Origin: Alphaproteobacteria bacterium
GTDB taxonomy: Bacteria; Pseudomonadota; Alphaproteobacteria; CAAHEQ01; UBA3637
Length of the DNA: 64,000 bases
NCBI GenBank assembly: GCA_045632845.1
Contig: JAZQXL010000020.1
Coordinates: 99,386-163,385 of the forward strand
Direction: 5' to 3'
Every line of letters begins with the position of its first letter. Positions within the stretch are counted from its first letter, which is position 1. Below the pieces are notes generated by a model. That model saw nothing but the letters and a program-made list of their open reading frames with translations, was not told the DNA's origin and made no database searches. The translations under genes were made by a program, and so were the position numbers. Of this stretch, positions 11,213-47,841 are shown piece by piece.

Positions 11213-11306
11213 TTTCTTTTCCTTCATACATACAAACTAAGACTTAAAACCCATTTCTAAGTCTTGAAAGGGGAACATCCCTTGATGCTCCCCTTGAAAA
11301 TCGTGG

Positions 11307-11576
11307 TTATTTACGTAAACCTAAACGTTTGATGAGTTCGTTGTAACGGCCTTCATCATCTTTCTTCAAGTACTTGAGCAAACGACGACGATTTGAAACC
11401 ATTTTCAAAAGACCGCGTCTTGAGTGGTGGTCTTGAGCATTTGATTTCATATGTTCTGACAAATAGTTAATTTTTGCTGTCAAAACTGCAACTTGAACTT
11501 CTGGTGAACCTGTATCACCTTCTTTTGTTGCATAATCAACAATAATTTGCTTTTTCATTTCTTTTGAAAGCGACAT
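11307..11576 (-). CDS. rpsO: 30S ribosomal protein S15
   Basis: [44 protein letters not shown]...[11 protein letters not shown]. Confidence 0.92.
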
Positions 11577-11601
11577 CGTAATTTTCCTTTCTTAATTTAA
11601 A

Positions 11602-12516
11602 TTAAACTTCCTCTGGAAAGACACGAAATGGTTTTAACACGCCATTTTCATACCGAACCAAAGCAACGACTTGTTGATTTAAGTGAAGAGCGATAACTGT
11701 TTGGTTTTGAACTTTTTGACCAGTTAAAATACCTTTTGCACTTAGCGCTTTTCCTTGCCTCAACGCCTTTGCCCCTTCCCCATCTACAGCCAGCACCAAG
11801 ATGTCGTCCAGTGCGGTTAAAACAGGGATAATAGACAAATCTTCTGGATTATACTCCTTTTTTTCCAAATTTTCAAGTAAAATCGAATGGTTAAGCGAAA
11901 AAGGACCGCATTTTGTTCTTCTTAAAACGGTAATATATCCATAACAACCTAATTTTCGGCCCATATCGTGCCCCAAAGAACGAACATAAGTTCCTTTTCC
12001 ACACTGTACTTCAAACAAGGTTTTGCTTCCCTCGTGAGAAATAACTTTTAAATCTTTAATCATAACAGGACGTGGTTTTAATTCTACATCAACACCTTTT
12101 CTTGCAAGCTCATAAGCCCTCTTCCCATTTATTTTAATTGCAGAATACAAAGGTGGTGTTTGCAAAATTTCCCCCTTAAACAAAGGCAAAATAGATTCAA
12201 TTTCTTCCAAAGAAGGTTGCTTGTCACTTTCAAACAATACTTCACCTTCTAAGTCATCTGTTGATGTTTCTTTTCCCCAAGTAACTTCAAACTGATAAAT
12301 TTTATCCCCATCCATAACATAAGGGATTGTTTTTGTTGCTTGACCTAAAGCAATGGGCAAAACACCTGTTGCAAGCGGATCCAAAGTTCCTGCATGACCG
12401 ATTTTTGAGGGATGCAAATATCTTTTGAGCCGATTAACAACGGTTGTTGAGCCCATTTCATAAGCTTTATCAATTACAAGCCAACCATTAATTTGATTGA
12501 TAATTTTTGCCATCAA
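11602..12516 (-). CDS. truB: tRNA pseudouridine(55) synthase
   Basis: GWLVIDKAYEMGSTTVVNRLKR...GHAGTLDPLATGVLPIALGQATK (TruB catalytic Asp motif). Position in the nusA-infB operon. Confidence 0.9.
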   Translation of the reverse strand: MMAKIINQINGWLVIDKAYEMGSTTVVNRLKRYLHPSKIGHAGTLDPLATGVLPIALGQATKTIPYVMDGDKIYQFEVTWGKETSTDDLEGEVLFESDKQPSLEEIESILPLFKGEILQTPPLYSAIKINGKRAYELARKGVDVELKPRPVMIKDLKVISHEGSKTLFEVQCGKGTYVRSLGHDMGRKLGCYGYITVLRRTKCGPFSLNHSILLENLEKKEYNPEDLSIIPVLTALDDILVLAVDGEGAKALRQGKALSAKGILTGQKVQNQTVIALHLNQQVVALVRYENGVLKPFRVFPEEV

Positions 12517-12939
12517 TTACAATTCTTCTTCCTCAATTTCTTTTTCAACATCTGCACGAACTTGTGGAGAATTTAAAAGATCATTGATATATTTTGAAGC
12601 TGCAAATCTATTGTCTGATTTAAAAATAATATCAGGAACAATTCTTAAACGAACAGATTTACCAATTTTATAACGGAACACACCTTTATGACGATTCAAT
12701 AATGTAATTTGTTCATCCAAATTAACTGCATCACCAATCGTTTCAACAAAAGCTGTTGCATATGATAAATCAGGAGAAATTGTCACTTGTGTTACCATAA
12801 TAAATGATGGTTTCAATCCTTCAATGAAAACTTCATCTTGTGAAAGCATTTTAGCAAGAACATGTCTGATTTCTTCAGCAACACGTAATTGACGTTGTGA
12901 AGGCGCTTTTGATTTTCCTTTTTCAGTATTTTTCATCAC
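12517..12939 (-). CDS. rbfA: Ribosome-binding factor A
   Basis: QRQLRVAEEIRHVLAKML...VTQVTISPDLSYATAFV. Operon position after infB. Confidence 0.88.
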   Translation of the reverse strand: MMKNTEKGKSKAPSQRQLRVAEEIRHVLAKMLSQDEVFIEGLKPSFIMVTQVTISPDLSYATAFVETIGDAVNLDEQITLLNRHKGVFRYKIGKSVRLRIVPDIIFKSDNRFAASKYINDLLNSPQVRADVEKEIEEEEL

Positions 12940-12944
12940 ACCTC

Positions 12945-15368
12945 CTATACATCAAAATTCAACTTAACTGCGATTTCTTCCATTTCGAAACATTCGATAA
13001 CATCACCAACTTTTAAGTCATCATAATTTTCAAAACTCATACCGCATTCATAACTTTCACGAACTTCTTTAACATCATCTTTAAAGCGTTTTAATTGGCT
13101 AAGTGCCCCAGTATAGATAACAACAGAATCTCTCAATAAACGAACTTTTGCACCACGTTTGACAATACCTTCTTTAACCATACAACCAGCAATTTTACCA
13201 ACTTTTGAAATTGAAATAACTTGGCGAATTTCAGCATAACCCAAGATTTTTTCTTTCAATTCTGGTTCAAGCAAGCCTGCAACAGCTTGTTTCATATCAT
13301 CAGCAACATCGTAAACAATCGAGTAGTAACGAATATCTACACCATCACGTTTTGCCATTTCACGAGCTGTTGGATTTGCACGAACGTTAAAGCCAATGAT
13401 AATTGCTTTTGAAGCACGTGCCAATGTAACATCAGATTCGTTAATTGCACCTACAGCACTATGTAATACATGAACTTTAACTTCATTATTTGCAATACGA
13501 GAAAGAATACCATTCAATGCTTCAACAGAACCTTGTACGTCACCTTTAATTAAAACAGGCAATTCTTTGATTTCACCAGCTTTAATTTTTGCCAACAAGT
13601 GTTCAGCACTGCTCATTGTTTTAACTTGCAATTGTTCTCTTGCTTTTCTTTGACGATAAGCAGAAATTTCCCTTGCTCTTGCTTCTGTATCTACTTCAAT
13701 AAAATCATCCCCTGCTGATGGCGTTCCTTGCAACCCAATAACTTCAACAGGTTGTGAAGGATATGCTTTATCCACACGTTGACCTTTATCATTAAAGAGT
13801 GAGCGAACACGACCCCATTCTTGACCAGAAATAAAGATATCACCCACATTTAATGTACCTTTTTGGACCAAAACAGTTGCAACTGAACCACGACCTTTAT
13901 CCATACGTGCTTCAACAACAACACCTTCTGCCATCCGTTTTGAAGAAGCTTTTAAATCAAGAACTTCAGCTTGCAACAAAATTGTTTCAATAAGCTTATC
14001 TAAATTGATGCGTTTTTTCGCAGAAACTTCAACATCAAGAACGTCACCACCCATTGATTCAACAACAACATCATGTTGCAACAAGTCTGTACGAACTTTT
14101 TGTGGATTTGCCCCTGGAACATCAATTTTGTTAATTGCAACAACGATTGGAACACCAGCAGCTTTTGCGTGGTGAATAGCTTCAATTGTTTGAGGCATAA
14201 CACTGTCATTTGCAGCAACAACCAAAACAACAAGGTCTGTTACCTTTGCCCCACGAGCACGCATTGCTGTAAACGCTTCGTGCCCAGGTGTATCAATAAA
14301 TGTAACCTTTTGACCTTCTGACAAACTAACTTGATAAGCACCAATGTGCTGTGTAATACCACCAGATTCACCTTGAGCAACATTTGATGAACGCAAAGCA
14401 TCCAACAAAGATGTTTTACCATGGTCAACGTGACCCATAACAGTTACAACAGGTGAACGTGGCTCCAAATCTTCTGGTAAATCATCTTCTTTTTTCAAAA
14501 TATCTTCAACATCAGATTCAGCAACACGTTTGATTTTGTGACCCAATTCTTCAACCACCAACTCCGCAGTATCTGCATCAATTGTTTGTGTAATTGTAAC
14601 CATCATACCAAGCTTCATCAAAACCTTAACAACTGTTGCGCCTTTTTCACTCATACGGTTTGCCAACTCTTGAACTGTAATTGTTTCTGGCACAACAACT
14701 TCACGAATAACTTTTTCTTGAACCTTTGGTTCCATATGTTTTAAACGTTCTTTTTCACGAGAGCGTTTAATTGATGCCATAGAACGGCGTTGATGACGAA
14801 CACCATCTTCCATATCATCACCATCAGAATCACTCATACTCATATTTTTATAAGCATTCATATTCATTTTTGATGAACGTTTTTCTTCATGAAACCCACG
14901 TGTTCTACCGCGATCTTCTGATTCAGATTCTCTTTCTTTCTTACGAGAAAAATTAGAATTTTCAACAGGTTTTTTATCATGTTTTTTTTCTGTGCGAGCT
15001 TCAACAACTTCTACCGGAGCTTCTTCTTCAACAACAGACGCTTCAACCTCTTTTTCTTCAACTGTAACAGCAGCAGCGGCTAATTTTTCTTGTTCTTCTC
15101 TTTGTTTTTGTTCAGCTTCCACACGTGCTTTTTCTGCAGCACGTTGTTGAGCCTCTTGAATCAATTTTAATTTTTGAGAAGCCTCTGTTGAAAGGACGTT
15201 AGGTTGTTGTTCTGCCGTAATAACACGTTTTTTACGAACTTCAACTTGAACCATGTTGGATTTTCCTGCGCCTGTATTTTGGCGAACTTGCGTATTTAAA
15301 GAAAGTGTTTTCTTTTTCAATTCTAACGTCTTCCCTGTTAACGTAAGTTGTTTCTTTTCTTCTGTCAT
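12945..15368 (-). CDS. infB: Translation initiation factor IF-2
   Basis: GTPase G-domain [32 protein letters not shown]. Long charged N-terminal region. 807 aa. Confidence 0.95.
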
Positions 15369-15383
15369 AGTTTATCCTTTCCT

Positions 15384-15986
15384 TTAATAGCCTTGTAAAA
15401 GGTTTACTTTTTTAATCAGTTGGATTAAAACAGTTGCCATCTTTTCATCTGTTATAACCAAGTGAACTTGTTCATCTTGCCCTGTTACACTTCCCAATTC
15501 TTGTCTTGAAAAACAATTTAAAATAGGAAAAGTATCTGTTGAACGGTACAATTTATCATGTCCATTTTTTGCTGCATCTTGAGCCTCAAAAGCAATCAAG
15601 ACTTTTTGAGCTTCAATCGCTTTTTTAACCCCCTCAAACCCAAAAACCAAACACCCTGATTTTCGAGCAAATGAAATCAAATTAAGAGCTTTTGTTTTTA
15701 ATGAATTTATAACCATTTCTCTTAAATTTTCAGGAATTTTAACAGTCCCTTTTGCAGCTTTATAAAATATTTTTTTTTCAATAGCTGCATCCAACGAATC
15801 CTTTGTTGGATACAACCATATACCAGCACCTGGTAATTTTTCATTTACATCAAACACAACTTCCCGATCAGGAGAGATGACAAAACGAATCATCTCTTCC
15901 CGAGGAAAGAATTTTTTTGTAACAAAACAACTTTTCAAACCATTATCAGCTGCTCGTTTATGTTGATGTCTATTAATCTTATTCAA
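15384..15986 (-). CDS. YlxR (DUF448)-L7Ae-like RNA-binding protein of the nusA-infB operon
   Basis: CFVTKKFFPREEMIRFVISPD...LPGAGIWLYPTKD (YlxR motif) plus C-terminal L7Ae-like segment. Sits between nusA and infB, as is typical in alphaproteobacteria. Confidence 0.75.
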   Translation of the reverse strand: MNKINRHQHKRAADNGLKSCFVTKKFFPREEMIRFVISPDREVVFDVNEKLPGAGIWLYPTKDSLDAAIEKKIFYKAAKGTVKIPENLREMVINSLKTKALNLISFARKSGCLVFGFEGVKKAIEAQKVLIAFEAQDAAKNGHDKLYRSTDTFPILNCFSRQELGSVTGQDEQVHLVITDEKMATVLIQLIKKVNLLQGY

Positions 15987-17478
15987 ACCAGTGTTCCCGT
16001 GCTTTCATAATAAGTTTATTTGCTTGATCTTCATTCATTAAGCTTTTGCCAACAATTTCAATCAATTCATCAGTTGCTAAATCAGCAAAATCATCTAATG
16101 TTTTGATATCGTTTTCACCCAACTTAACAAGAATATCTAATGTCAAACCATCAAGAGATTTCAATGCATCTTCAAGATCGAGTTCTGCCAATTTCTTTTC
16201 CATTGTATCTTGTTTAAGGATTAAATATGCTTTTGCACGATTTTGCAATTCTTCAGCCAAAGCGTCATCAAACCCTTCAATACCCGCCAATTCATTCATT
16301 GAAATAAAGGCAATATCTTCAACTTTTGAGAAACCTTCTTGAATCAAAAGATGAGCCATCATATCATCAATATCCAAAGCCTGCATGAACAACTCAACAC
16401 GTTCTTTTGTTTCATTGATACGATGTTCTGATTCTTGAGCTTCATTCATCATATCAATATGCCAACCTGTTAATTGACTGATCAAACGGATATTTTGACC
16501 ACGACGGCCAATTGCTAATGAAAGTTGTTCTTCACTCAACACAACTTCGACATTCTTTGATTCTTCATCAATAACAATTTTCAAAACTTCACTTGGAGCC
16601 AATGCATTGATGATAAATGTTGCAGGATCTGATGACCAATGAACAACATCAATTTTTTCACCCTGTAATTCTTGAACAATTGCTTGAACGCGAACACCAC
16701 GCATACCAATACAAGCGCCACGAGCATCCAAAGTGTTATCTTTTGACCAAACAGCAATTTTTGCACGAGAACCAGGATCACGAGCAACTGATTTAACTTC
16801 AATTGTACCATCGTAAATTTCTGGAACTTCTGCTGCAAATAATTTTGCAAGGAATTGTGGATGTGAACGGCTCAAAAACACTTGAGGACCTTTAACTTCT
16901 GCACGAACATCTAAAACATAAGCGCGCAATCTATCACCTACACGATACGTTTCTCTTGGAATAAGTTCATCACGACGGAGTAATGCTTCAACATGGGCAA
17001 CTTCAACAACCAAGTTACCACCTTCAACACGTTTAACAATACCGCTAACAATTTCACCTTTACGGCTCTTCATTTCGTTGAATTGGCACATTCTTTCAGC
17101 TTCACGAACCTTTTGTGTAATAACTTGTTTTGCTGTTTGAGCTGCAATACGGCCAAAATCCATTGGTGGCAAGGGATCAACAATCACATCACCTAATTTC
17201 AATGTTTTATCTTTCTTTTGAGCATTAACCAAAGAAATTTGAGTAAATTCATCTTCAACAGTTTCAACAACAGTAACATATCTTGCCATTTGAATAGCGC
17301 CCGTTGTTGGATCAATTTTTGTGCGAATATCATATTCAGGACCATATTTAGAACGACCAGCTTTTGAAATACCTTGTTCCATAGCTTCTAAAACATCTTT
17401 TTTAGAAATATTTTTTTCACGAGCCAATAAATCAGCCATTTGAATAAGTTCTGGTCTTGGAAGAGTTGCAATTTGCAT
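15979..17478 (-). CDS. nusA: Transcription termination/antitermination factor NusA
   Basis: S1 and KH domains (GDRLRAYVLDV..., LAIGRRGQNIRL). Acidic C-terminal repeats. 499 aa. Confidence 0.93.
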   Translation of the reverse strand: MQIATLPRPELIQMADLLAREKNISKKDVLEAMEQGISKAGRSKYGPEYDIRTKIDPTTGAIQMARYVTVVETVEDEFTQISLVNAQKKDKTLKLGDVIVDPLPPMDFGRIAAQTAKQVITQKVREAERMCQFNEMKSRKGEIVSGIVKRVEGGNLVVEVAHVEALLRRDELIPRETYRVGDRLRAYVLDVRAEVKGPQVFLSRSHPQFLAKLFAAEVPEIYDGTIEVKSVARDPGSRAKIAVWSKDNTLDARGACIGMRGVRVQAIVQELQGEKIDVVHWSSDPATFIINALAPSEVLKIVIDEESKNVEVVLSEEQLSLAIGRRGQNIRLISQLTGWHIDMMNEAQESEHRINETKERVELFMQALDIDDMMAHLLIQEGFSKVEDIAFISMNELAGIEGFDDALAEELQNRAKAYLILKQDTMEKKLAELDLEDALKSLDGLTLDILVKLGENDIKTLDDFADLATDELIEIVGKSLMNEDQANKLIMKAREHWFE

Positions 17479-17496
17479 TTGTATACCTTTCTTTGA

Positions 17497-17985
17497 TTAT
17501 TTTTTTGGTTGTTTTTGCATAAACGTATCAGTTAACAGAAGTTTTGCTTTTGAAATTTCAGAAAAAGCAATTTGAAGCTCTTGATCTTCAAAAGCAAAAT
17601 GCACAGTATGTGTCACTTCATCATATTTTAAAATTTTGCCTTTAAAGCGTTTTCTACCATTAATATCGTGAAGTGTTTCAATTTTTGCATCAGATCCTGC
17701 AAAACGAGAATAATCAGCTTCACGAACCAAAGGCCTGTCAACACCTGGAGATGAAATCTCTAACATATATTTGTTGGGAAAAATATCTTCAACATCCAAC
17801 AGAGCTGAAGATGTACGACTAATTTTTTCACAATCAGCAAGAGTCATTGCAGCCCTATCCAAACGTTCAGCCATAATTTGAACAGTTTTAACGTCACCAC
17901 CTTGCAATGAGATTCTCACAATTTCATATCCCATATCCAACAAGGATGGGGACAACATTTCTGTTAATTGAGTTGATAGTTCCAT
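17497..17985 (-). CDS. rimP: Ribosome maturation factor RimP
   Basis: Immediately upstream of nusA. LLDMGYEIVRISLQGG...VTHTVHF. Typical size of 162 aa. Confidence 0.85.
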   Translation of the reverse strand: MELSTQLTEMLSPSLLDMGYEIVRISLQGGDVKTVQIMAERLDRAAMTLADCEKISRTSSALLDVEDIFPNKYMLEISSPGVDRPLVREADYSRFAGSDAKIETLHDINGRKRFKGKILKYDEVTHTVHFAFEDQELQIAFSEISKAKLLLTDTFMQKQPKK

Positions 17986-18180
17986 TGTTTTTCCTTTACT
18001 AAAAAAGGCGAGCTAACTAGCTCACCCTCATAAAATCATTGAGAATATAGGTACATTATACATATTTTTTACAAAAAAACAAGTGTTTTTACAAAAAAAA
18101 GATATCTTTTGGAAAAAAACTTGCAAAAACTCAAAAAAATTTGTTAACTATAAGAAAAATAGATTAAAAAAGGGGATACA

Positions 18181-19407
18181 ATGCTATTTTCAAAAAAAAC
18201 ACCTCAAACAGTTGAAGAAATAAAAACCGAAGAAGCAAGCGAACCTGCTTCAAATCCAATGCCTCAGGCACCAGCTTTTTCTGGACCTGCATCAATTCCT
18301 CAAGCACCTGTTCTTACCTTAAAAAAAGAGCAACTTATTGGAAATTCTAATACCTCTTCACCTAAAGAACCAGAAGATAATGTTCAAACAACCAATCCGT
18401 TTCCTCACGAAGAAACACAAGGGGATGGAACAAAAGTTTTTAAAGCACAATCCGTTCAAGATGTTAATTTTTCAGACATTTGGTTAACGCCAGAAAAAGT
18501 TTCATACATCCGTGATAAATCCACTAAATTTGCCTTAATTCCTTTTGAAACAGATGATATGGATGACTTTTTAAGAGCACTTGATCAAAACTTTCAAGGT
18601 GCCTCTAGTTATTCCATTAAATTCAAAGGAGAAGCTTATCGTGTAGAACGCGTTGTTACAACAACTGGGATTCAATATAACTGCCGAAAAATGCCATCAT
18701 CTACACCAAACATATATAATCTTGGATTACCCGAACCTGTTGTTAAATATATGACTTCCCTTGCAACCGAATCTGGGCTACTTCTTTTTGCGGGTCCAAC
18801 AGGTATGGGAAAAACAACATCTGCCTCAGCCTTGATACGCGAATTTTTAGAAACACATGGTGGATTCTTATACACCATTGAAGACCCACCTGAAATGCCT
18901 TTAGATGGCATTTATCATGCCAAAAATGGAGGCTTAGGATTATGTAAACAAAGTCCCGTTGAAAACGAAAGATGGGAAGATGGATTAAAATCCGCCTTAC
19001 GTTCTCGTCCAAGATACATCCTTGTTGGAGAAATCAGAACGCCTGAAGTTGCCTCTCAAGCATTACGCGCAGCAACATCTGGACACCTTGTTGTATCAAC
19101 CATTCATGCAAACAGCGTTGAAGATGCTTTAAACTCTTTGATCAAATATGCTGCTGGTGCAGGGTTAGATGAAAAACTTGTTTGCGACCTTTTGGCTCGT
19201 GGCATTTTGGGTGTTATTCACCAACAATTGGAAGGGACAACAACCTTGCGACCTGTTATTCATACCGCTTTTGCAAACCCAAACCCAATGGTAGCTTGCC
19301 AAATGCGTATGAGCATCCGCGAAGGAAAAATTGCTCTTGCTACATTTATGGAGGCACAAAACACCAGAATGTTCCAAGGCCGACCTTTATTTAGGGAAAT
19401 TAAATAA
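18181..19407 (+). CDS. PilT/VirB11/CpaF-superfamily secretion ATPase with divergent, Pro-rich N-terminal region
   Basis: Walker A LLFAGPTGMGKTTSAS. Asp box YTIEDPPEM. Walker B RYILVGEIRTPE. His box SGHLVVSTIHANSVEDAL (PilT-like). The first ~150 aa are low-complexity (PQAPAFSGPASIPQAP) and unlike the PilT N-domain. RBS aaaaaggggata upstream. Confidence 0.8.
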   Translation: MLFSKKTPQTVEEIKTEEASEPASNPMPQAPAFSGPASIPQAPVLTLKKEQLIGNSNTSSPKEPEDNVQTTNPFPHEETQGDGTKVFKAQSVQDVNFSDIWLTPEKVSYIRDKSTKFALIPFETDDMDDFLRALDQNFQGASSYSIKFKGEAYRVERVVTTTGIQYNCRKMPSSTPNIYNLGLPEPVVKYMTSLATESGLLLFAGPTGMGKTTSASALIREFLETHGGFLYTIEDPPEMPLDGIYHAKNGGLGLCKQSPVENERWEDGLKSALRSRPRYILVGEIRTPEVASQALRAATSGHLVVSTIHANSVEDALNSLIKYAAGAGLDEKLVCDLLARGILGVIHQQLEGTTTLRPVIHTAFANPNPMVACQMRMSIREGKIALATFMEAQNTRMFQGRPLFREIK

Positions 19408-19426
19408 TGTTTTCTCTCTCAAAACA

Positions 19427-19451
19427 AAAAGCCCCGCTCGGGGCTTTTTTT
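19427..19451 (+). terminator. Rho-independent terminator after the ATPase gene
   Basis: aaaagccccgctcggggcttttttttg. Confidence 0.6.
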
Positions 19452-19601
19452 TGTTACAAATAAAATAAAAGAGAGATTAAGATCTCTTTTGTTAATAAAT
19501 TTATTTCTATTTAAAATAAAAAAATCGAAGATTGTTTTTCCCACAGATAAATATCCTGTAACATATGTTTTTTTAACAACCAATCAAAAAGGAAACATAA
19601 A

Positions 19602-20222
19602 ATGATTTACGGATATATCAGAGTTTCAACTGACAAACAAACCACAGAAAACCAAAAATTTGAAATCGAGCAATTTTGTATTCAAAACAAGATTGTTATT
19701 GACAAATGGATAACCGAAACCATTAGCGCAACAAAAGAGTTAAATAAACGAAAACTTGGTACTCTTTTAAGACAAATTAAAAATGACGATATTGTTATTG
19801 CAACAGAATTATCCAGATTAGGTAGAAATCTGCTTCAAGTCATGAGTATTTTACACCACTGTATGAATGTTGGTTGCCAAATTTGGACTATTAAAGACCA
19901 CTATCGACTTGGGAAAACCATAGAATCAAAGGTATTAGCTTTTGCTTTTGGATTAGCCGCAGAAATTGAACGAGATCTTATTTCTCAACGAACTAGCGAA
20001 GCTCTAAAACGATTAAAAACCGAAGGAAAAACTTTGGGGCGTCCCAAAGGAAAAAAGAATCAAAAATGTAAATTGGAAAATAAAAAAAATCAAATTAAAA
20101 ACCTTTTGGAAAAGAAAGTTCCCAGAAACAAAATAGCAAAAACCATAAATGTTGATGTAAAAACATTAAATAAATTTATCGATGATTATAAAAAATATGT
20201 TGTTTTTTCCTTATTTTTATAA
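19602..20222 (+). CDS. Small serine recombinase (resolvase/invertase family)
   Basis: MIYGYIRVSTDKQTTENQ (catalytic Ser in the YxRVSTxxQ motif). LSRLGRN. C-terminal HTH KIAKTINVDVKTLNKFI. 206 aa. Confidence 0.85.
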   Translation: MIYGYIRVSTDKQTTENQKFEIEQFCIQNKIVIDKWITETISATKELNKRKLGTLLRQIKNDDIVIATELSRLGRNLLQVMSILHHCMNVGCQIWTIKDHYRLGKTIESKVLAFAFGLAAEIERDLISQRTSEALKRLKTEGKTLGRPKGKKNQKCKLENKKNQIKNLLEKKVPRNKIAKTINVDVKTLNKFIDDYKKYVVFSLFL

Positions 20223-20225
20223 CAA

Positions 20226-20258
20226 AAAAGCCCCTGACGAGCAGAGGCTTTTTCTTTA
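20226..20258. terminator. Bidirectional terminator between the recombinase gene and tuf
   Basis: aaaaaagcccctgacgagcagaggctttttcttt imperfect hairpin with T-run. Confidence 0.45.
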
Positions 20259-20272
20259 TTTTGCGGCTTTGA

Positions 20273-21463
20273 TTATTCAAAGATTTTTGCAACAACGCCG
20301 GCGCCAACTGTGTGACCACCTTCACGAATAGCAAAACGCAAACCTTCGTCCATAGCTACAGGAACGATCAATGAAACTGTTAATTTAACATTGTCGCCTG
20401 GCATAACCATTTCAACACCTTCAGGTAATTCGATTGTACCTGTAACGTCTGTTGTACGGAAGTAGAATTGTGGGCGATAGTTTGCGAAGAATGGTGTATG
20501 ACGACCACCTTCATCTTTGCTCAACACATAAACTTCTGATTCAAATTTTGTGTGTGGAGTAATTGTTCCTGGAGCAGCCAAAACTTGACCACGTTCAACT
20601 TCGTCACGTTTTGTACCACGGAGAAGAGCACCGATGTTATCACCAGCTTCACCTTGATCCAATAATTTACGGAACATTTCAACGCCTGTACATGTTGTTT
20701 TAGCTGTTGGACGGATACCAACGATTTCAACTTCTTCACCAACTTTTAATACACCGCGTTCTACACGACCTGTAACAACTGTACCACGGCCTGAAATTGA
20801 GAACACGTCTTCGATTGGCATCAAGAATGGTTTGTCTTTTGGACGTTCTGGTTGTGGAATGTATGAGTCAACTGCTTCCATCAATGACAAGATAGCATCA
20901 CGACCGATTGCTGGATCACCATCATCTAATGCAACTTTTGCAGAACCTTTGATAACTGGAATATCATCACCTGGGAATTGGTATGAAGATAACAATTCAC
21001 GGATTTCCATTTCAACTAATTCTAACAATTCAGCATCGTCAACCATGTCAACTTTGTTCATGAAAACAACGATTGCAGGAACGCCGACTTGGCGAGCGAG
21101 CAAGATGTGTTCACGAGTTTGTGGCATAGGACCATCAGCTGAAGAAACAACTAAGATAGCGCCGTCCATTTGAGCAGCACCAGTAATCATGTTTTTAACA
21201 TAGTCAGCGTGGCCAGGGCAGTCAACGTGTGCATAGTGGCGGTTTGCTGTTTCATATTCAACGTGTGATGTTGAAATGGTAATACCGCGTGCGCGTTCTT
21301 CTGGAGCTTTATCGATGTTTGCATAATCAACGAAAGCTGCGCCACCTTTTTCTGCCAATACTTTTGTAATAGCAGCTGTTAATGTTGTTTTACCGTGGTC
21401 AACGTGACCGATCGTACCGATATTGCAGTGCGGTTTTGATCTTTCAAATTTTTCTTTACTCAT
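20273..21463 (-). CDS. tuf: Elongation factor Tu
   Basis: [32 protein letters not shown]...[26 protein letters not shown]. 396 aa. Confidence 0.97.
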
Positions 21464-21525
21464 TATTATTTTCCTTAACTGATCAGTGTTAAAAAATTAA
21501 AATCCCACTATGGGATTTCGTTAAA

Positions 21526-21599
21526 TGGAGCGGGTGAAGGGAATCGAACCCTCGTAGTCAGCTTGGAAGGCTGGAGCTTTACCATTAAGCTACACCCGC
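21526..21599 (-). tRNA. tRNA-Gly (anticodon UCC)
   Basis: Reverse complement GCGGGTGTAGCTTAATGGTAAAGCTCCAGCCTTCCAAGCTGA...GGTTCGATTCCCTTCACCCGCTCCA. Confidence 0.85.
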
Positions 21600-21619
21600 A
21601 CATCAGTCGGGTTCGTCCT

Positions 21620-21705
21620 TGGTGGAAGGGGAAAGATTCGAACTTTCGTAGACATAAGTCGGCAGATTTACAGTCTGCTGCCATTAACCACTCGGCCACC
21701 CTTCC
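21620..21705 (-). tRNA. tRNA-Tyr (anticodon GUA)
   Basis: Reverse complement GGAAGGGTGGCCGAGTGGTTAATGGCAGCAGACTGTAAATCTGC...long variable arm...GTTCGAATCTTTCCCCTTCCACCA. Confidence 0.85.
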
Positions 21706-21842
21706 ATCTTTGGACGGACAACTTACACCAACCTCTGTGCAAGTAGGGTTATTATGCCTTTAAATTAAGCTCTTGTCAAGAACTTTTTTAAAAAAATAAT
21801 AACTCTTTCAATTTTATAGAAAAAACTTAATAAAATTTCACT

Positions 21843-23582
21843 TTATTTGAGCCGTTCTAACAATTCTTTTTCAAGCTCAGGCGTTAAATCGTACTTTAAT
21901 GCAAGGGCCTTTTCATATTGCGATTTAGATTCTCTTAAACGACCCAAAGCTTTATAAATATCGCCTAAATGCATATTCGCAACAGAGCTTGCTCCCATAC
22001 CATCAACCGCTTTTTCTGCAAAAAGGAGAGCATCATTATAACGTTCTTGCTTATAATAAGCAAATGCAAGCGAATCCATTATTTCTGGTGAATTTGGGGC
22101 TAACTCATTTGCTTTTTCTAAAAAGGCAACCGCTTCATTGATATGTAAATCTTTTTCAAGCCAAGCATAAGCCAAATAATTCAAAACAGAAGCATCATTT
22201 GGATCTAATCTCAAACATGACCTCATATTTTTTTCAAACAAATCAAATTTATCCTCTTCCAAATAACAGGCACCCGCATCAAAATAAACATCTTTAAAGT
22301 TACTTGCACCCATTTTTTCTAACAAAGAAATTGTTCGCTCATAAAAAGGAATCGCAGATTTACAATCCCCAATTTCTTTATATGAATTTGCAATAAGGGT
22401 TGATAAAACAAAATTGCTTTTATTCCGTGTTTCTAACTCATTAAAAATCACCAAAGCCTCTTTAATTTTCTTTTCTTTTAAATAAAGATTCCCTTTTTTA
22501 TAAAGAATAATATCTGACCTATTTGAAGTTTCCCATAATTCATCATAAATTTTATGTGCCGCATTAAAATGTCCTAAACGATCAAAACTTTCTGCCAACC
22601 AAATTTTTGCCAAATTATGATTATTATTTAAAAATAAAGATACATTCACAATAAAAGCTGCAACCTCATGTTGGTTAGAAGCATTAATTCCCCAAGAATA
22701 AAAGACCTCACTCATCCCCTCTTGTGGTGTTTTAATTGCTGGCATACCAACTTGCTCAATAATGTCTTTTAATAAAGGCGTTTCATTTAATATTTTTGTG
22801 TATTTTAACACATACCCGTTGCTAAAATTCCATCTTTTTCGTCTTTGAAAAAATTCTTTTCCAGAAACAAGCGCTGTCCATGAAGAAATATTGGGAATTG
22901 CTGCGATTTCATTATAATATTTTTCCGCAGCAGATTGATCACCAAAATAATCCATTATCAATGCAGAATGGTACAATCTTGTATGGTTTGAAAATTCATC
23001 TTTTTCCATTTTATTTAATGTTGCAAGAGCCTTTTCTTTATCTTTCAGACCAGCATAAACCCAAGCAAGCAAAGGATATTCATAAGATTTTTCCATCTTA
23101 TCTTTATTCAAAAGAAGAATGGCTTTTGCTTGTTGATAATTTTGATTTTTAATTGCGTGCGCAACCTTCACATAAGTAGCAAAAAAGAATTCATTATCCT
23201 TTTTTAAATCATCTGTAAAAAAAGAATTTAAGTCAGCAACATTGCCTGAAACACCCTCTAAAAAGTAAAGTTGTTTTGCAATAACATCATTTGTAGGATC
23301 AAGCTCATATGCTTTTCTCAAATAAAGAGCACTCTTATAAAAATCCCCTTCATTTTTAGCTGCAATTCCCGCCCAAAAAGCCCCCAAATTGATTGTTTCT
23401 GGAATTTCTCGTTCTGTCTTAAAAAACTCTTGAAACTTTTTTACTTCCTTATCTTTGGCTTGTTTTTGAGTAAAATACAAAACTTTTTCAAACCATTTAT
23501 CCATTGTTAAAGAAACTGGCTTATAAAAAAATGCACTCGATAAAATACCGCAAACAACCAAACTATAGAGAATCTTCTTCAT
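21843..23582 (-). CDS. Secreted tetratricopeptide-repeat (TPR) protein
   Basis: Signal peptide MKKILYSLVVCGILSSAFF. Multiple TPR-like repeats (ALYLRKAYELDPTN, AIPFYERTISLLE, AVAFLEKANELAPNSPE, KSQYEKALAL). 579 aa. Confidence 0.7.
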   Translation of the reverse strand: MKKILYSLVVCGILSSAFFYKPVSLTMDKWFEKVLYFTQKQAKDKEVKKFQEFFKTEREIPETINLGAFWAGIAAKNEGDFYKSALYLRKAYELDPTNDVIAKQLYFLEGVSGNVADLNSFFTDDLKKDNEFFFATYVKVAHAIKNQNYQQAKAILLLNKDKMEKSYEYPLLAWVYAGLKDKEKALATLNKMEKDEFSNHTRLYHSALIMDYFGDQSAAEKYYNEIAAIPNISSWTALVSGKEFFQRRKRWNFSNGYVLKYTKILNETPLLKDIIEQVGMPAIKTPQEGMSEVFYSWGINASNQHEVAAFIVNVSLFLNNNHNLAKIWLAESFDRLGHFNAAHKIYDELWETSNRSDIILYKKGNLYLKEKKIKEALVIFNELETRNKSNFVLSTLIANSYKEIGDCKSAIPFYERTISLLEKMGASNFKDVYFDAGACYLEEDKFDLFEKNMRSCLRLDPNDASVLNYLAYAWLEKDLHINEAVAFLEKANELAPNSPEIMDSLAFAYYKQERYNDALLFAEKAVDGMGASSVANMHLGDIYKALGRLRESKSQYEKALALKYDLTPELEKELLERLK

Positions 23583-23664
23583 ATTACACTTCCATTTTTA
23601 GAAAAAACTTTACATTTTATGTATTTTTATGCTATCATCATTTTACAAAAAAAAGAAGTAAAAA

Positions 23665-24453
23665 ATGAACACCTATGCAATTTTAAAATGGTATCAACTT
23701 TCAAATATCACAGAGGTTATTGGCGAACTTGCCATTGACCGTTTTGAGTTGTTCAAAAAAAACCAAGAACAAACCCGAACAAATCCTATTGTTTTCAACA
23801 CACAAACAGAAGAAAAAACAAATATTGTTGTTGATAAAAATCTTTCGTTTGTAACAAAGGCTGAAGAAATTGCACAATCAAGTAACTCATTAATCGAATT
23901 AAAGCAATCACTCGAATCTTTTGATTCTTGTTCATTAAAAAAAACAGCTCTCAACACTTTTATCGGTGTCGGCAAACAAGAAAATCCAACTGTTTTTTGT
24001 TTGTTTGATGCACCTAAAGCGCAAGCTGAAAAATCAGGTAATTTATTTGATGGTCCAAATGGCGTTTTGATGCAAAAAATGCTTTCAGCCATTCAACTAT
24101 CTCCCCAAAATTCATTTATTGCGCCCTTAATCCCTTGGAGATTACCCGGCGACAGAAAACCAACACAAACCGAAGAATGCATCTGTGCTCCATTTATAAA
24201 AAAACAAATTGAGCTGGTAAATCCAGATTTCATTCTTATTTTTGGAGCCATTCCAACACGTGTTTTAATGGGAATTGAAAGCATCTCCAAAGCAAGACAA
24301 CAAAACTTAACATATCAACTTAATGATAAAAACATCCCTGTTATTGCAACATTTGGGCCCGATTTGGTTTCCACTTCACAAACCTCTCGCAAAAATGCTT
24401 GGGATGATTTAAAAAAACTTAACCAATTAATACAAGAAAAAATATCAAACTAA
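23665..24453 (+). CDS. Uracil-DNA glycosylase family 4-like protein (phage-type DNA-polymerase-associated UDG superfamily) with N-terminal extension
   Basis: FIGVGKQENPTVFCLFDAPKAQAEKSGNLFDGPNGVLMQKMLSAIQL resembles the family-4 UDG GEAPG..E...G.PF.G..G..L motif. FILIFGAIPTRVLMG resembles the C-terminal motif. Extra ~90 aa at the N-terminus. Confidence 0.6.
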   Translation: MNTYAILKWYQLSNITEVIGELAIDRFELFKKNQEQTRTNPIVFNTQTEEKTNIVVDKNLSFVTKAEEIAQSSNSLIELKQSLESFDSCSLKKTALNTFIGVGKQENPTVFCLFDAPKAQAEKSGNLFDGPNGVLMQKMLSAIQLSPQNSFIAPLIPWRLPGDRKPTQTEECICAPFIKKQIELVNPDFILIFGAIPTRVLMGIESISKARQQNLTYQLNDKNIPVIATFGPDLVSTSQTSRKNAWDDLKKLNQLIQEKISN

Positions 24454-24469
24454 CAAAAGGAAATTAAAA

Positions 24470-25744
24470 ATGCTTGATATCAAATTTATTCGTGAAAACC
24501 CTGATATTGTCAAAAAAACTTTGGCTGAAAAATGCTTAACATTAGATATTGATGAACTTTTATCGATTGATAAAAAAATCATCCAAATCAAACAATTGAT
24601 GGAAGCTGAATTACAAAAAAGAAATGCTCTTAGCAAAGAAATGCCAAAAGCTTCACCTGAAAGAAAAGAAGAAATCAAAGAACTTTCTAAAAAATCAGGG
24701 CAACAAGCAGCCGCATATGCCGAAGAATTAAAACCTTTAGAAGAACAATTCAAATCAATGATGGGCATGACACCAACTATCCCTGCTCCAGATGTTCCAC
24801 GTGGAACAAGTGAAGAAGAAAACGTTGTCGTTCGCCAAGTTGGCGAAAAACCAACATTCGATTTTGAAATGAAAGACCATGTTGAGTTGATGGATTTGAA
24901 CAACTGGGGTGAATTCAAAAAAATCTCTCAAATTTGCGGCAGCCGCACTGTCGGGATTAAAGGTGAACTTCTTCAATTAGAAATGGCTTTATGGCAATTT
25001 ACTGTTAATAAATTGATGGAAAAAGGCTTTACCGTAATGAGCGTCCCTTCCCTCTCATTTGAAAACGCATTCTATCACACAGGCCACTTCCCATTTGATT
25101 ATGATTCTGTTTACTCTATGCCAAAAGACAACCTTTATTTAGCTGGAACAGCTGAAGTTATTTTAAACAGTATTCACGCAGGCGATATTCTTAAAGAAGC
25201 TGATTTGCCAATTATGTACGCAGGATTCTCTCCTTGTTTCAGACGTGAAGCAGGCGCTGCTGGTAAAGACACAAGAGGACTTATCCGTGTTCACCAATTC
25301 AGCAAAGTTGAACAATACATTATTTGTAAAGCTGAAGTTGCCGAATCAGATAAAATGCATCAATTTATTTTGCAAAATGCTGAGGAAGTTATGCAAGAAA
25401 TGGAAATTCCATATCAAATCATTGCGAACTGCACAGGCGATATGGGTGCGGGCAAATACCGTATGAACGACATTGAAGCTTGGTGTCCAGGTCAAAACCA
25501 ATACAGAGAAACGCACAGCTGTTCTTCTTTATTAGACTGGCAAGCACGTCGAACAAACATCCGCTATCGTGAAGATGAAACAGGCAAAGTTAAATATGCT
25601 TATACATTGAACAATACAGGCCTTGCAACACCACGTGTGTTGGTTGCCTTTATTGAAAATCACCAACAAGCTGATGGATCTGTTCGTATTCCAAAAGCTC
25701 TTCAACCTTATATGGGTGGAAAAACAAAAATCGGTGGAAAATAA
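24470..25744 (+). CDS. serS: Serine--tRNA ligase
   Basis: MLDIKFIRENPDIVKKTLAEK, N-terminal coiled coil, class II motifs (FRREAGAAGKDTRGLIRVHQFSKVE, GLATPRVLVAFIENHQ). Confidence 0.95.
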   Translation: MLDIKFIRENPDIVKKTLAEKCLTLDIDELLSIDKKIIQIKQLMEAELQKRNALSKEMPKASPERKEEIKELSKKSGQQAAAYAEELKPLEEQFKSMMGMTPTIPAPDVPRGTSEEENVVVRQVGEKPTFDFEMKDHVELMDLNNWGEFKKISQICGSRTVGIKGELLQLEMALWQFTVNKLMEKGFTVMSVPSLSFENAFYHTGHFPFDYDSVYSMPKDNLYLAGTAEVILNSIHAGDILKEADLPIMYAGFSPCFRREAGAAGKDTRGLIRVHQFSKVEQYIICKAEVAESDKMHQFILQNAEEVMQEMEIPYQIIANCTGDMGAGKYRMNDIEAWCPGQNQYRETHSCSSLLDWQARRTNIRYREDETGKVKYAYTLNNTGLATPRVLVAFIENHQQADGSVRIPKALQPYMGGKTKIGGK

Positions 25745-25769
25745 AAATGAACCACTCTAAAAAAAGAGG

Positions 25770-25798
25770 CTTTAACGCCTCTTTTTTTTATTTAAATT
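25770..25798 (+). terminator. Terminator after serS
   Basis: aaaaaagaggctttaacgcctctttttttt. Confidence 0.6.
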
Positions 25799-26033
25799 CA
25801 CCATCATTAAACAACTCATTTGATTTTTATTTTCAATAAGTTAATCAACTTAAGGGTATGGGAGAAAAAACGAACCTTATTTTTCCTATAGCACAAATCA
25901 AATATGTTTGCAAATAATTTCACAAGAAAACTCAATAAAATTATTGTGTTATTTTGTTTTTCAAAAAACATTAAAATCTCCTCAAAATATGGAAAAAAAA
26001 GGTTCGTTTTTTTTCACACAAAAGGAGATAATT

Positions 26034-26507
26034 ATGAAATATAAAAAAAATGAGTCAGGCAGATCAATGGTTGAAATGTTGGGCGTCTTGGCTATTATCG
26101 GTGTGCTTTCTGTCGGCGGTATTGCAGGATACAGTTTGTCAATGCGTCGTCACAGAGCCAATGGTGTGGTAGATTATATCTCAAAATTTGCTTTAACAGA
26201 ATATGCTAAATGTCAACAAGAAGTGCTAGAAACCGGTATTTCAACATGGTACTGCAGCAATAAGGGGACATCATATTCACCCAACAGCACCCAATTGCCC
26301 GATATTGGAACTTTTCCTTCAGGAATTACTCAAATTACAACAAACGACATTTATACCGCTAGTGATGATGGTGCTGATGATAAAGTTGATATTGATGTAA
26401 AATTTTACGATCAAAAACTCTGTCAAGCAGTTGCGAGCGTTTCAGGATACAGTTGTGGCACTCAGAACAATGAACATATTATTAATTTTGTATTTAAGAT
26501 GGAATAA
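26034..26507 (+). CDS. Type IV pilin-like protein (prepilin with class III signal peptide), orphan
   Basis: MKYKKNESG|RSMVEMLGVLAIIGVLSVGGIAGYSL: short basic leader ending in Gly, Glu at +5, ~20-residue hydrophobic helix (parallels GFTLIEMLIVLAII). Two C-terminal Cys pairs (C..C). RBS aaaggaga 6 bp upstream of the ATG. Confidence 0.7.
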   Translation: MKYKKNESGRSMVEMLGVLAIIGVLSVGGIAGYSLSMRRHRANGVVDYISKFALTEYAKCQQEVLETGISTWYCSNKGTSYSPNSTQLPDIGTFPSGITQITTNDIYTASDDGADDKVDIDVKFYDQKLCQAVASVSGYSCGTQNNEHIINFVFKME

Positions 26508-26526
26508 GTTCAATCAAAATGAATTT

Positions 26527-26565
26527 AAATCCCAAAAAGGAGTCTCAAAAAAAGAGACTCCTTTT
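26527..26565. terminator. Bidirectional terminator between the pilin-like gene and rpoH
   Basis: aaaaaggagtctcaaaaaaagagactcctttttt. Confidence 0.6.
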
Positions 26566-26582
26566 TTCTCAACAAAAAGAAT

Positions 26583-31853: not shown

Positions 31854-32021
31854 GCATACACAATATCCTCGGTCTATTTTTTCTTTTAAAACTATTGAAT
31901 CACTTTTAACATTGGAAAAACAACTAAGTACAAACATTTAATCCCACTTATTTTTTCTTGATTTTGACTTAAAAGCATATTATACTTTTTTTAAATTGGC
32001 TGTTTGTTTAAAGGAGAAAAC

Positions 32022-44972: not shown

Positions 44973-45059
44973 GCTTTAAAACGCTTTTTAAGCTAAAAAA
45001 ACCATCAGACAGACTCTACTGGTGGTTTTTTTATATCTAAAATAAAAAATATTCATCAA

Positions 45060-45075
45060 TGTTTCACGTGAAACA
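45060..45075. promoter_or_regulatory. parS site (TGTTTCACGTGAAACA)
   Basis: Perfect 16-bp ParB-binding palindrome. Confidence 0.85.
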
Positions 45076-45090
45076 TTATACATAAAAAAG

Positions 45091-45099
45091 TTATCCACA
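45091..45099. promoter_or_regulatory. DnaA box TTATCCACA
   Basis: Perfect consensus 9-mer within the parS cluster downstream of parB. Confidence 0.5.
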
Positions 45100-45144
45100 G
45101 GCCCTGATGGTAATTAAATTTTTGTTTAACAAATAAAAAAAGAA

Positions 45145-45160
45145 TGTTTCACGTGAAACA
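45145..45160. promoter_or_regulatory. parS site inside a 30-bp extended palindrome (aagaatGTTTCACGTGAAACattctt)
   Basis: Perfect parS. The extended arms are identical to the copy at 47720. Confidence 0.85.
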
Positions 45161-45186
45161 TTCTTTTTTTTGTAATCGATTCTAAT

Positions 45187-45202
45187 TGTTTCACGTGGAA
45201 CA
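45187..45202. promoter_or_regulatory. parS-like site (TGTTTCACGTGGAACA, 1 mismatch)
   Basis: Sequence match. Confidence 0.7.
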
Positions 45203-45221
45203 TTTTTAATTTAGATTGAGT

Positions 45222-45237
45222 TGTTTCACGTGAAACA
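45222..45237. promoter_or_regulatory. parS site
   Basis: Perfect TGTTTCACGTGAAACA. Confidence 0.85.
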
Positions 45238-45240
45238 AAA

Positions 45241-45266
45241 AAAGAGCGATTTCTCGCTCTTTTTTA
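45241..45266 (-). terminator. Terminator after parB
   Basis: aaagagcgatttctcgctctttttt. Confidence 0.55.
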
Positions 45267-47540: not shown

Positions 47541-47627
47541 CCCCTTATTATTATCTTAACTAAACATTAACTTTTTTAAAAAAGGAATGCAAGTATTTTT
47601 TATAAAAAAAGAAAAAATACCACCTAA

Positions 47628-47643
47628 TGTTTCACGTGAAACA
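47628..47643. promoter_or_regulatory. parS site
   Basis: Perfect match. Confidence 0.85.
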
Positions 47644-47719
47644 CTGAAAATTAATAAAAAAGAATAAAATATTCTTATTTTTTTCTGATTACTTAGTGTT
47701 TCACATAATAAAAAAAGAA

Positions 47720-47735
47720 TGTTTCACGTGAAACA
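47720..47735. promoter_or_regulatory. parS site in extended palindrome (preceded by half-site TGTTTCAC at 47698)
   Basis: Perfect match. Flanks identical to 45139-45166. Confidence 0.85.
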
Positions 47736-47787
47736 TTCTTTTTTTAACGACAATTTTAATGACACATTTTAAAGATCATTTTTTTTA

Positions 47788-47803
47788 TGTTCCACGTGAA
47801 ACA
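47788..47803. promoter_or_regulatory. parS-like site (TGTTCCACGTGAAACA, 1 mismatch)
   Basis: Sequence match. Confidence 0.7.
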
Positions 47804-47841
47804 TAAAAAAAACACCCATTAAAGGGTGTTTTTTAACATTT

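Follow-up and report, generated by a model that had tools for sequence, protein, structure and literature searches.

What connects a PilT-like ATPase gene with the serine recombinase gene that directly follows it, when both lie between rimP and tuf? We examined this question in a stretch of 64,000 nucleotides from an Alphaproteobacteria bacterium (GenBank assembly GCA_045632845.1, contig JAZQXL010000020.1, positions 99,386 to 163,385), hereafter the window, which has a guanine–cytosine (GC) content of ~34%. An earlier note, made from the letters of the window, had described the pair as a two-gene accessory module that could be the motor of a dispersed pilus or secretion system, or part of a mobile or phase-variable cassette. 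Comparison with related genomes gave a different answer: the ATPase and recombinase genes do not form a module but came to be neighbours recently and by accident. They have separate origins, and the only invertible DNA that we found stands in front of a pilin-like gene 5.6 kb away. Below, we describe the ATPase, the recombinase, the invertible segment and the pilin-like gene, and weigh how they may be linked. The coordinates of all features are collected in Table 1.

Conservation of the ATPase gene and its position

A search of 5.8 billion proteins returned more than 1,500 homologues of the ATPase, many of them 57–84% identical to it over residues ~86–408, with N-termini of differing length. 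One genome per species was scanned, which yielded 80 ATPase loci whose open reading frames were called and clustered (loci are cited below by L numbers). All 80 derive from uncultured gut, rumen or faecal metagenome-assembled genomes (MAGs) labelled Alphaproteobacteria, Rhodospirillales or Pseudomonadota, and nearly all carry the mere label "Alphaproteobacteria bacterium". In 37 fetched loci, rimP was the divergent upstream neighbour of the ATPase gene, with nusA, ylxR and infB beyond it. Other housekeeping genes, including znuACB, mfd, trkA, recA and htpG, stand beside the ATPase gene in more distant species. The order rimP–ATPase–tuf was found without any recombinase gene in L001, L002, L008, L010, L011, L014 and L015, whose ATPases are 72–84% identical to that of the window. 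Without the recombinase gene, the spacer between the ATPase gene and tuf measures 167–290 bp in the nearest other species and 209 bp in L001 and L002; in the window it measures 866 bp. No pilus or secretion gene was a recurrent neighbour of the ATPase gene among the clustered loci.

The ratio of non-synonymous to synonymous substitution rates (dN/dS) was 0.02–0.07 for each of the ATPase and recombinase genes (~0.05 for the ATPase), indicating strong purifying selection on both. Given the more than 1,500 homologues, the rimP neighbour in 37 loci, the recombinase-free relatives and the low dN/dS, the ATPase is almost certainly a resident, PilT-like gene of a low-GC clade of uncultured gut Alphaproteobacteria. 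Its divergent position beside rimP and the rimP–ATPase–tuf order of the recombinase-free relatives contradict the view that it is an accessory or inserted gene. The same relatives show that tuf followed by the ATPase gene is the normal state in the group, which disposes of the proposed rearrangement at the tuf 3′ end. Indeed, the earlier note had named conserved synteny in relatives as what would speak against an accessory ATPase, and such synteny is what we found. An exact-sequence look-up of the window's ATPase and pilin-like protein, and of two pilin homologues present only in NCBI, returned no recorded match.

Family and fold of the ATPase

The ATPase carries every motif quoted earlier: Walker A GPTGMGKTT (residues 205–213), Asp box IEDPPE (233–238), Walker B ILVGEIR (280–286) and a His box, GHLVVSTIHANS (301–312); the YIRVSTDKQ motif of the recombinase, which begins at its residue 5, was likewise found. 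The Pfam model T2SSE matched the ATPase with 111.6 bits, and the best NCBIfam model was pilT_fam (TIGR01420), which aligned residues 94–354 to model positions 11–271. The models for ComGA, GspE, PilB, DotB, TraJ and VirB11 scored below pilT_fam and all far under their own cut-offs, for example 75.2 bits against 463.3 for DotB (TIGR02524) and 53.6 bits against 250 for VirB11 (TIGR02788). Among sequence matches in the PDB, PilT came first, with DotB and PilU close behind.

An AlphaFold model of the ATPase, built with 21 family members, had a predicted local distance difference test (pLDDT) score of 79; residues 1–70 scored below 50, and the chain is folded from residue ~75. In Foldseek, the model aligned to full-length PilT and PilU structures (2ewv, 6ojy, 5fl3, 3jvv and 9n32) over 321–333 columns with E-values of ~1e-21 and target-normalised template modelling scores of 0.64–0.72, and DotB and PilB/PilF ranked lower. 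Together with these alignments, the four ATPase motifs listed above identify a two-domain PilT fold.

The N-terminus had been described as ~150 Pro-rich, low-complexity residues unrelated to the PilT N-domain. This holds for a shorter stretch: low complexity ends at residue 70 by pLDDT or at ~85 by alignment (12 Pro in 85 residues), but a PilT N-domain is recognised from residue 94 by the hidden Markov model and is included in the ~326–332 columns aligned by Foldseek. Residues ~86–408 therefore comprise a complete PilT-type N-domain plus ATPase domain. The tail that precedes them is rich in Pro, Glu, Ser and Thr, disordered and variable; it is missing from family members of ~321 amino acids (aa) and reaches ~300 residues elsewhere, and its extreme tip is conserved as an M-[FL]-F-x-x-K-P-P-K-like motif. 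At the other end, the sequence QMRMSIREGKI (374–384) includes R376, I379 and R380, which are invariant in the family. By eye, it resembles the AIRNLIRE-type motif of retraction ATPases; the HMMER alignments to PilT end before it, and a HMMER comparison of the C-terminal 70 residues with PilT gave no match. The cysteines at 168, 255, 335 and 373 form no paired CxxC of the kind known from extension ATPases.

A library clustered at 50% identity held only ~10 clusters of the ATPase family proper, all from MAGs of gut Alphaproteobacteria, and beyond them lay a continuum of PilT-like proteins of 310–350 aa that are 33–45% identical. Annotation pipelines label this PilT-like ATPase "TadA". Neither this ATPase nor the pilin family considered below is described in the literature consulted on the pili of gut Alphaproteobacteria (RF32, Rs-D84).

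DotB was the fourth-best PDB sequence match (4e-21) and also appeared among the Foldseek matches, the window contains a VirB4-like gene, and L004 has a VirB11-like T2SSE protein next to TrbI within 10 kb of the ATPase gene. These observations would fit an ATPase that serves a type IV secretion system (T4SS) instead of a pilus, much as DotB or VirB11 does, alongside the virB3/virB4-like gene (38771–41215). We consider such a role improbable, because PilT and PilU outrank DotB in every search and the DotB model reaches 75 bits against a cut-off of 463; moreover, the clade has a separate VirB11-like ATPase beside TrbI (L004), and the ATPase gene never adjoins T4SS genes in the examined loci.

We therefore classify the protein as a PilT/PilU-like ATPase of the hexameric type, in a clade part of which has gained a Pro-rich disordered tail. 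Like PilT and PilU (TIGR01420; 2ewv, 3jvv, 6ojy, 9n32), which are its best matches in both sequence and structure, it has a two-domain fold of ~330 residues with the four motifs and no extra N1 domain. It differs from them in its score (120 versus 319 bits), in its disordered tail of 70–85 residues and in never lying beside pilus genes.

Origin of the recombinase gene

The recombinase matched the NCBIfam model of the Mpi "master DNA invertase" family (NF009949) with 301 bits, above the cut-off of 272, and its residues 1–196 aligned to model positions 1–196 of 203. Pfam reported Resolvase at 111.4 bits and HTH_7 at 18 bits, the latter under its cut-off. The closest solved structures were DNA invertase chains (4m6f, 3uj3; E 3e-12), and gamma-delta resolvase was also among them. 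It was the sole site-specific recombinase detected within the window.

At the site between the ATPase gene and tuf, a recombinase gene was present only in the window, L100, L006 and L090, which form one species-level lineage; their ATPases are 97.5% (L100) and ~95% (L006 and L090) identical to that of the window. Gene orientation at the site was the same in all five assemblies compared. The recombinase also occurs elsewhere. In genome JAZUBA01, the ATPase gene stands by rimP (L018) and an 87%-identical recombinase is encoded on a separate contig (L089), and L017, L020 and L032 carry a copy of 63% identity at a distance of ~10 kb from the ATPase gene. On L089 (1–7713), the recombinase gene adjoins genes for an SNF2-type helicase, DUF4391, SLFN/AlbA_2, N6/N4 methylase, GIY-YIG and restriction-endonuclease proteins, and this region looks like a defence island. 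The only inverted repeats by this unlinked copy were AT-rich noise.

The borders of the insertion could be bracketed by alignment. Relatives with an empty site align up to 19423 and resume at 20168, and the L089 copy aligns over 19552–20179, which places the left border between 19423 and 19552 and the right border between 20168 and 20179. The insert of ~0.65–0.75 kb comprises essentially the recombinase gene and its upstream region. The last ~14 codons of the recombinase open reading frame derive from older sequence flanking tuf; the canonical family length is 198 aa. These data give us high confidence that the recombinase gene is a lineage-specific insertion. Relative to L006 and L090, synonymous divergence (dS) was 0.82–0.91 for the recombinase gene (window 19602–20180) and 0.16–0.36 for the adjacent ATPase gene, and because the former far exceeds the latter, the two genes have had separate histories. 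This pattern of divergence suggests that the recombinase allele was swapped by recombination after the insertion.

We considered whether the ATPase and recombinase genes could still be one mobile or phase-variable cassette inserted at the tuf 3′ end. The genes are adjacent, on the same strand and between terminator-like hairpins, and an imperfect inverted repeat of 31 nt (19440–19470 and 20204–20234, 77%), the best pair around the recombinase gene, flanks the latter. However, relatives keep the ATPase gene in the same place without the recombinase, L089 has the recombinase without the ATPase, and the insertion borders enclose the recombinase gene alone; the proposed two-gene module fails on the same three counts. 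The repeat consists mostly of the GC stems and A/T runs of terminators and is not conserved in L006, so we rejected it as an invertase target, and the unequal dS values speak for separate histories. A search for inverted repeats flanking 18000–20270 as an invertase target, which had been proposed as a check, was run, and none of the five assemblies showed a change of orientation. A common cassette is thus scarcely credible and already refuted by synteny. With the recombinase gene regarded as an insertion of its own, the question becomes where its product might act.

An invertible segment upstream of a pilin-like gene

An inverted repeat (IR) of 28 nt, with arms that are 89% complementary, is among the longest in the window and brackets 104 bp directly before the ATG of a pilin-like gene at 26034, 5.6 kb from the recombinase gene. 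Its 23-nt core gave 2 matches in the window, against 0 expected from 100 shuffles. Contig L100 (ENA ERZ28633774) is collinear with the window at 96% over 9599–25890, up to the inner boundary of the left arm, after which its last 55 nt (16263–16317) match window 26014–25961 on the minus strand at 96.4%, and its final 30 nt are the exact reverse complement of 25961–25990. Because the end of L100 matches the opposite strand past the left arm, the segment is inverted in L100 relative to the window. A short, IR-bracketed segment has thus been seen in both orientations, and we regard it as most probably a real inverton.

Could the flip in L100 be an assembly artefact at the repeat, or an old inversion that became fixed between strains? 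One contig alone shows it, ending 30 nt into the segment, and the strains differ by ~4% in DNA. On the other hand, the arms share only 14 consecutive identical bases, presumably too short for a mis-join at usual k-mer sizes, and the L100 junction TTTTTCCTATATTTTGAGG is new sequence and no mosaic of window k-mers. An IR-bracketed short segment before a surface-filament gene is also the typical anatomy of an inverton, and contigs of two samples break at this spot: L100 stops after 30 nt of the flipped segment, and the end of L090, in unrelated sequence, falls at the same junction. A break here is expected from a population of mixed orientation, with other causes possible. Taken together, an artefact or a fixed inversion seems a poor account of the data. 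A crossover at a hix-like 12-2-12 centre (CG-AA-CC) was considered, but it does not fit the left-arm variants in L100 unless the arms of L100 differ.

If the segment is an inverton, its inversion would exchange the sequence that faces the pilin gene. Promoter-like sites occur on both strands of the 104 bp: TTCACA-17-TATTGT faces the gene in the window orientation and TTGCAA-17-TGnTATAGG in the flipped orientation. The latter is closer to the TTGAC-17-TATACT found upstream of the pilin genes of relatives. The phase-variable cassette of the earlier note hence survives in part: an invertible segment exists, but it lies before the pilin gene, 5.6 kb off, and not around the ATPase–recombinase pair.

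The pilin-plus-IR cassette is absent from L001 and L002, where serS and a sigma-factor gene are 61 bp apart. Both the recombinase gene and the pilin-inverton cassette are therefore present in this species and absent at the same sites in L001 and L002. The junction 3′ of serS is variable: it holds the pilin cassette in the window (25745–26582), the 61-bp spacer in L001 and L002 (L001 16912–16972), an HpaII-type restriction-modification pair in L008 (16957–18911), and unrelated sequence in L090 (14152–14309), where the contig ends shortly after a palindrome of 30 bp, GTGTAAAATAAACGTTCGATTAATTTACAC.

A scan of JGI metagenomes for the IR gave five hits, single, unpaired and probably due to chance, one of them on a contig of 70% GC. 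ARACGTWCGT, a putative IR consensus for Mpi of Bacteroides, was set aside, as no two of the window sequences that match it pair up as an inverted repeat.

The pilin-like gene

The gene at 26034, which the earlier note had named as pilin-like, is real and has type IV pilin architecture. Its ATG is preceded at 8 nt by a ribosome-binding site (AAGGAG). The leader MKYKKNESG is followed by RSMVEMLGVLAIIGVLS, so that the product begins MKYKKNESG-RSMVEMLGVLAIIGVLSVGGIAGY, with Gly at −1, Arg at +1, Glu at +5 and a hydrophobic helix. The C-terminal domain is variable and contains 4 conserved Cys. Its structure was predicted with a pLDDT of 81 as a 60-residue N-terminal helix and a four-stranded sheet; a long N-terminal helix on a beta-sheet head is the arrangement expected of a pilin. 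The open reading frame 25908–26507 had been tried as an outer-membrane protein gene, as L008 has a gene for a 199-aa outer-membrane protein in a similar place; we rejected this, since the real start is 26034 and the product is pilin-like.

The pilin family is large, with 7,888 homologues detected, many of which share contigs. Across the clade, many loci encode the same invariant N-terminus, SGRSMVEMLGVLAIIGVLSVGGIAGY. In two samples that contain the sister strain, arrays of 6–7 pilin-like paralogues in both orientations were observed (L097 5063–12242 and L098 3077–9774), and the paralogues within them are identical in their first 47 residues and variable in their heads. The two samples differ in the final gene of the array (164 versus 152 aa), and the loci also hold a Fic-domain gene and several proteins without a Pfam match.

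The protein resembles the type IVb pilins CofA/CFA-III and TcpA and the GspG-type pseudopilins in a leader that ends in Gly, Glu at +5, a helix of ~60 residues, a beta-sheet head and conserved Cys pairs. Unlike them, it has Arg at +1, its N_methyl and TIGR02532 matches are below threshold, and its first 47 residues are invariant over dozens of paralogues with the rest hypervariable.

A proposed link between ATPase, recombinase and pilin

The reading that we favour combines accidental neighbours, a resident ATPase, an inserted invertase, a pilin inverton and two functional links; as a whole, it has an even chance of being right. The ATPase would be the cytoplasmic motor, for retraction or as the only motor, of type IV pilin-like filaments made by the clade, one subunit of which is encoded at 26034–26507. 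The Mpi-family invertase, acquired by this species alone as a single-gene insertion of ~0.7 kb that separates the ATPase gene from the terminator of tuf, would turn the pilin gene on and off through action in trans on the 104-bp segment.

The two links were graded separately. That the invertase flips the pilin inverton is suggested by its being the sole recombinase in 64 kb, by the trans action of the Mpi family and by the co-occurrence of both elements in the species; we give it one chance in two. That the ATPase powers filaments of these pilins follows from both families being typical of the same clade, together with the lack, to our knowledge, of any other well-established role for PilT-type ATPases than that of a pilus motor; the odds on this link are likewise balanced. 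The suggestion of a dispersed-pilus motor with the gene at 26034 as candidate subunit thus gained support on the pilin side, where the architecture was found, and its motor link we infer.

Several observations weigh against this combined reading. The pilT_fam score of the ATPase (119.9 bits) is far under the cut-off of 319.1. PilB, PilC, PilD and a secretin were not found in the window or beside the ATPase gene in the examined loci. A pilin-like gene lies within 10 kb of the ATPase gene in ~14 of ~80 loci of other species, a proximity that we judged to be roughly at chance level, given the many pilin paralogues per genome. For the pilin-like protein, the matches to N_methyl (PF07963; 16.2 bits versus 21.2) and TIGR02532 (11.3 versus 16.3) fall below threshold, although both were the top matches and in the correct position in three divergent members; Foldseek with the pilin model gave no significant match. 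With respect to the switch, the two orientations come from two strains 4% apart in DNA and not from one population, and the L100 junction retains the left arm's own variants, so that the exchange point cannot be placed. The promoter-like sites are weak (9/12) in either orientation. Finally, no further IR copies and no Mpi-like regulon of sites were seen in the window or in ~100 loci.

Alternatively, the recombinase and the pilin inverton may be unconnected. The recombinase could be a stray mobile-element gene or have other targets, with a recombinase encoded outside the window flipping 25887–25990. Its native 3′ end has been replaced by flank sequence, the IR has no other known copy and is near no other copy of the recombinase (for example that of L089), and our view is of 64 kb of the genome. 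Even so, the gene is intact through the helix-turn-helix (HTH) and has a dN/dS of 0.02–0.07, no other recombinase is encoded in 64 kb, and it co-occurs with the inverton-pilin cassette, the nearest other species being without both. Its own family, moreover, is defined by promoter inversion in trans (PMC4747536). On balance, we hold an unrelated recombinase to be rather unlikely, and retain the invertase as candidate for switching the pilin gene.

Known switches offer points of comparison. In Bacteroides fragilis, the serine recombinase Mpi inverts numerous distant promoters (PMC4747536). Like Mpi, the recombinase described here is small, belongs to the serine class and carries an HTH at its C-terminus; it passes the curated cut-off and is encoded away from its candidate target, a short promoter segment on which it would act in trans. 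It differs in its alphaproteobacterial host, in having one candidate target at a pilin-like and not a polysaccharide locus, and in C-terminal residues encoded by the flank. A consensus shared by the repeats of multiple targets, as for Mpi, was not found in 64 kb of the genome and ~100 loci. The segment itself resembles fimS, the switch for type 1 fimbriae in Escherichia coli, where the invertible promoter segment is likewise short and sits immediately ahead of the gene for the major filament subunit, giving ON/OFF expression. fimS is flipped by the tyrosine recombinases FimB and FimE, which are encoded adjacent to it, and the fimbriae are of the chaperone-usher type and not type IV filaments. 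Hin, Gin, Cin and Pin share enzyme class and size with the recombinase, whose closest structures are invertases (4m6f, 3uj3). These enzymes depend on an enhancer and on Fis, and the ~1–4 kb that they flip either adjoins the invertase gene or includes it. By contrast, the candidate segment here is 104 bp long and 5.6 kb from the recombinase gene.

Gene order and other features of the window

Both open reading frames of the earlier note, of 408 and 206 aa, were recovered, and its order of tRNA-Tyr, tRNA-Gly and tuf is correct, the two tRNA genes lying upstream of tuf. The two terminators said to bound the pair are present as hairpins, but the second is that of tuf itself. This hairpin with its T-run (~20226–20258) is strong (−18.2 kcal/mol, z −4.3), and we assign it to tuf because relatives that lack the recombinase have kept it.

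Table 1 Position, strand and basis of assignment of the features discussed
Feature	Position	Strand	Basis
rimP, upstream neighbour	17497–17985	−	divergent from ATPase gene
PilT-like ATPase, 408 aa	18181–19407	+	open reading frame, Pfam T2SSE, NCBIfam pilT_fam best match
Hairpin, intrinsic terminator-like, 3′ of ATPase gene	19426–19449	+	hairpin prediction
Lineage-specific insertion with recombinase gene (probable; approximate borders)	19424–20179	+	comparison with empty-site relatives
Mpi-family small serine recombinase, 206 aa	19602–20222	+	Pfam Resolvase, NF009949
tuf terminator hairpin	20226–20258	−	kept in relatives without recombinase
tuf	20273–21463	−	gene order
Left IR arm TGGGAGAAAAAACGAACCTTATTTTTCC	25859–25886	.	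inverted-repeat search, shuffles
Invertible segment, 104 bp (probable)	25887–25990	.	opposite orientation in L100
Right IR arm GGAAAAAAAAGGTTCGTTTTTTTTCACA	25991–26018	.	inverted-repeat search, shuffles
Type IV pilin-like protein, 157 aa	26034–26507	+	N-terminus, family, predicted structure
VirB4/TrbE-like ATPase, 814 aa	38771–41215	−	Pfam CagE_TrbE_VirB, 44 bits

Within the 64 kb, no other T4SS gene was recognised apart from the VirB4/TrbE-like ATPase gene (38771–41215), which stands alone. A palindrome, TGTTTCACGTGAAACA, which matches the classical parS centromere sequence, occurs exactly or as one-base variants at least 8 times around parB, parA and gidB (45264–47540; window 45059–47836) and also at 54875–54906 and 24798–24813. 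Cumulative GC skew reaches its minimum near 53–54 kb, and the region of the replication origin thus probably falls within the window. Directly after tRNA-Gly(GCC) (1069–1143) stand two terminator-like hairpins of nearly the same sequence (ACCGACC...GGTCGGT; 1147–1173 and 1313–1339), 139 nt apart. The gene at 32004–33635 (+) encodes a protein of 543 aa with N-terminal hydrophobic segments, a long region that looks like coiled coil by eye, and no Pfam match.

Discussion

Two known themes recur in this locus, and nothing in it is categorically new. The ATPase is PilT/PilU-like, although below the family cut-off and with a lineage-specific disordered tail, and the switch follows the logic of fimS and Mpi. 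A bolder possibility is that the clade has an undescribed type IV filament system, in which a divergent PilT-like ATPase with a disordered docking tail, its gene retained beside the rimP–nusA–infB operon, would be the sole or main motor, the pilins would come from a hypervariable multigene family with an invariant 47-residue N-terminus, and Mpi-type invertases, exchanged horizontally, would act in trans on private invertons. We put this forward tentatively and regard it as doubtful in this full form.

The clade may consist of bacteria with reduced genomes; dependence on partner cells has been proposed for some MAG lineages of comparable gut Alphaproteobacteria, possibly of another order than the window's organism (PMC12306168). 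It is plausible that the ATPase and pilin families determine attachment to host or partner cells. The value of the locus lies in an inverton shown by assembly comparison and in two poorly annotated families of uncultured gut Alphaproteobacteria: a PilT-like ATPase that scores below every curated cut-off, and pilins that number in the thousands, hypervariable and mostly unnamed. If true, the trans-acting link would place a serine invertase of the Bacteroides Mpi type in control of a type IV pilin-like gene in an alphaproteobacterium. If both links hold, the locus would represent a compact form of phase variation of surface filaments in gut bacteria that are known from metagenomes alone.

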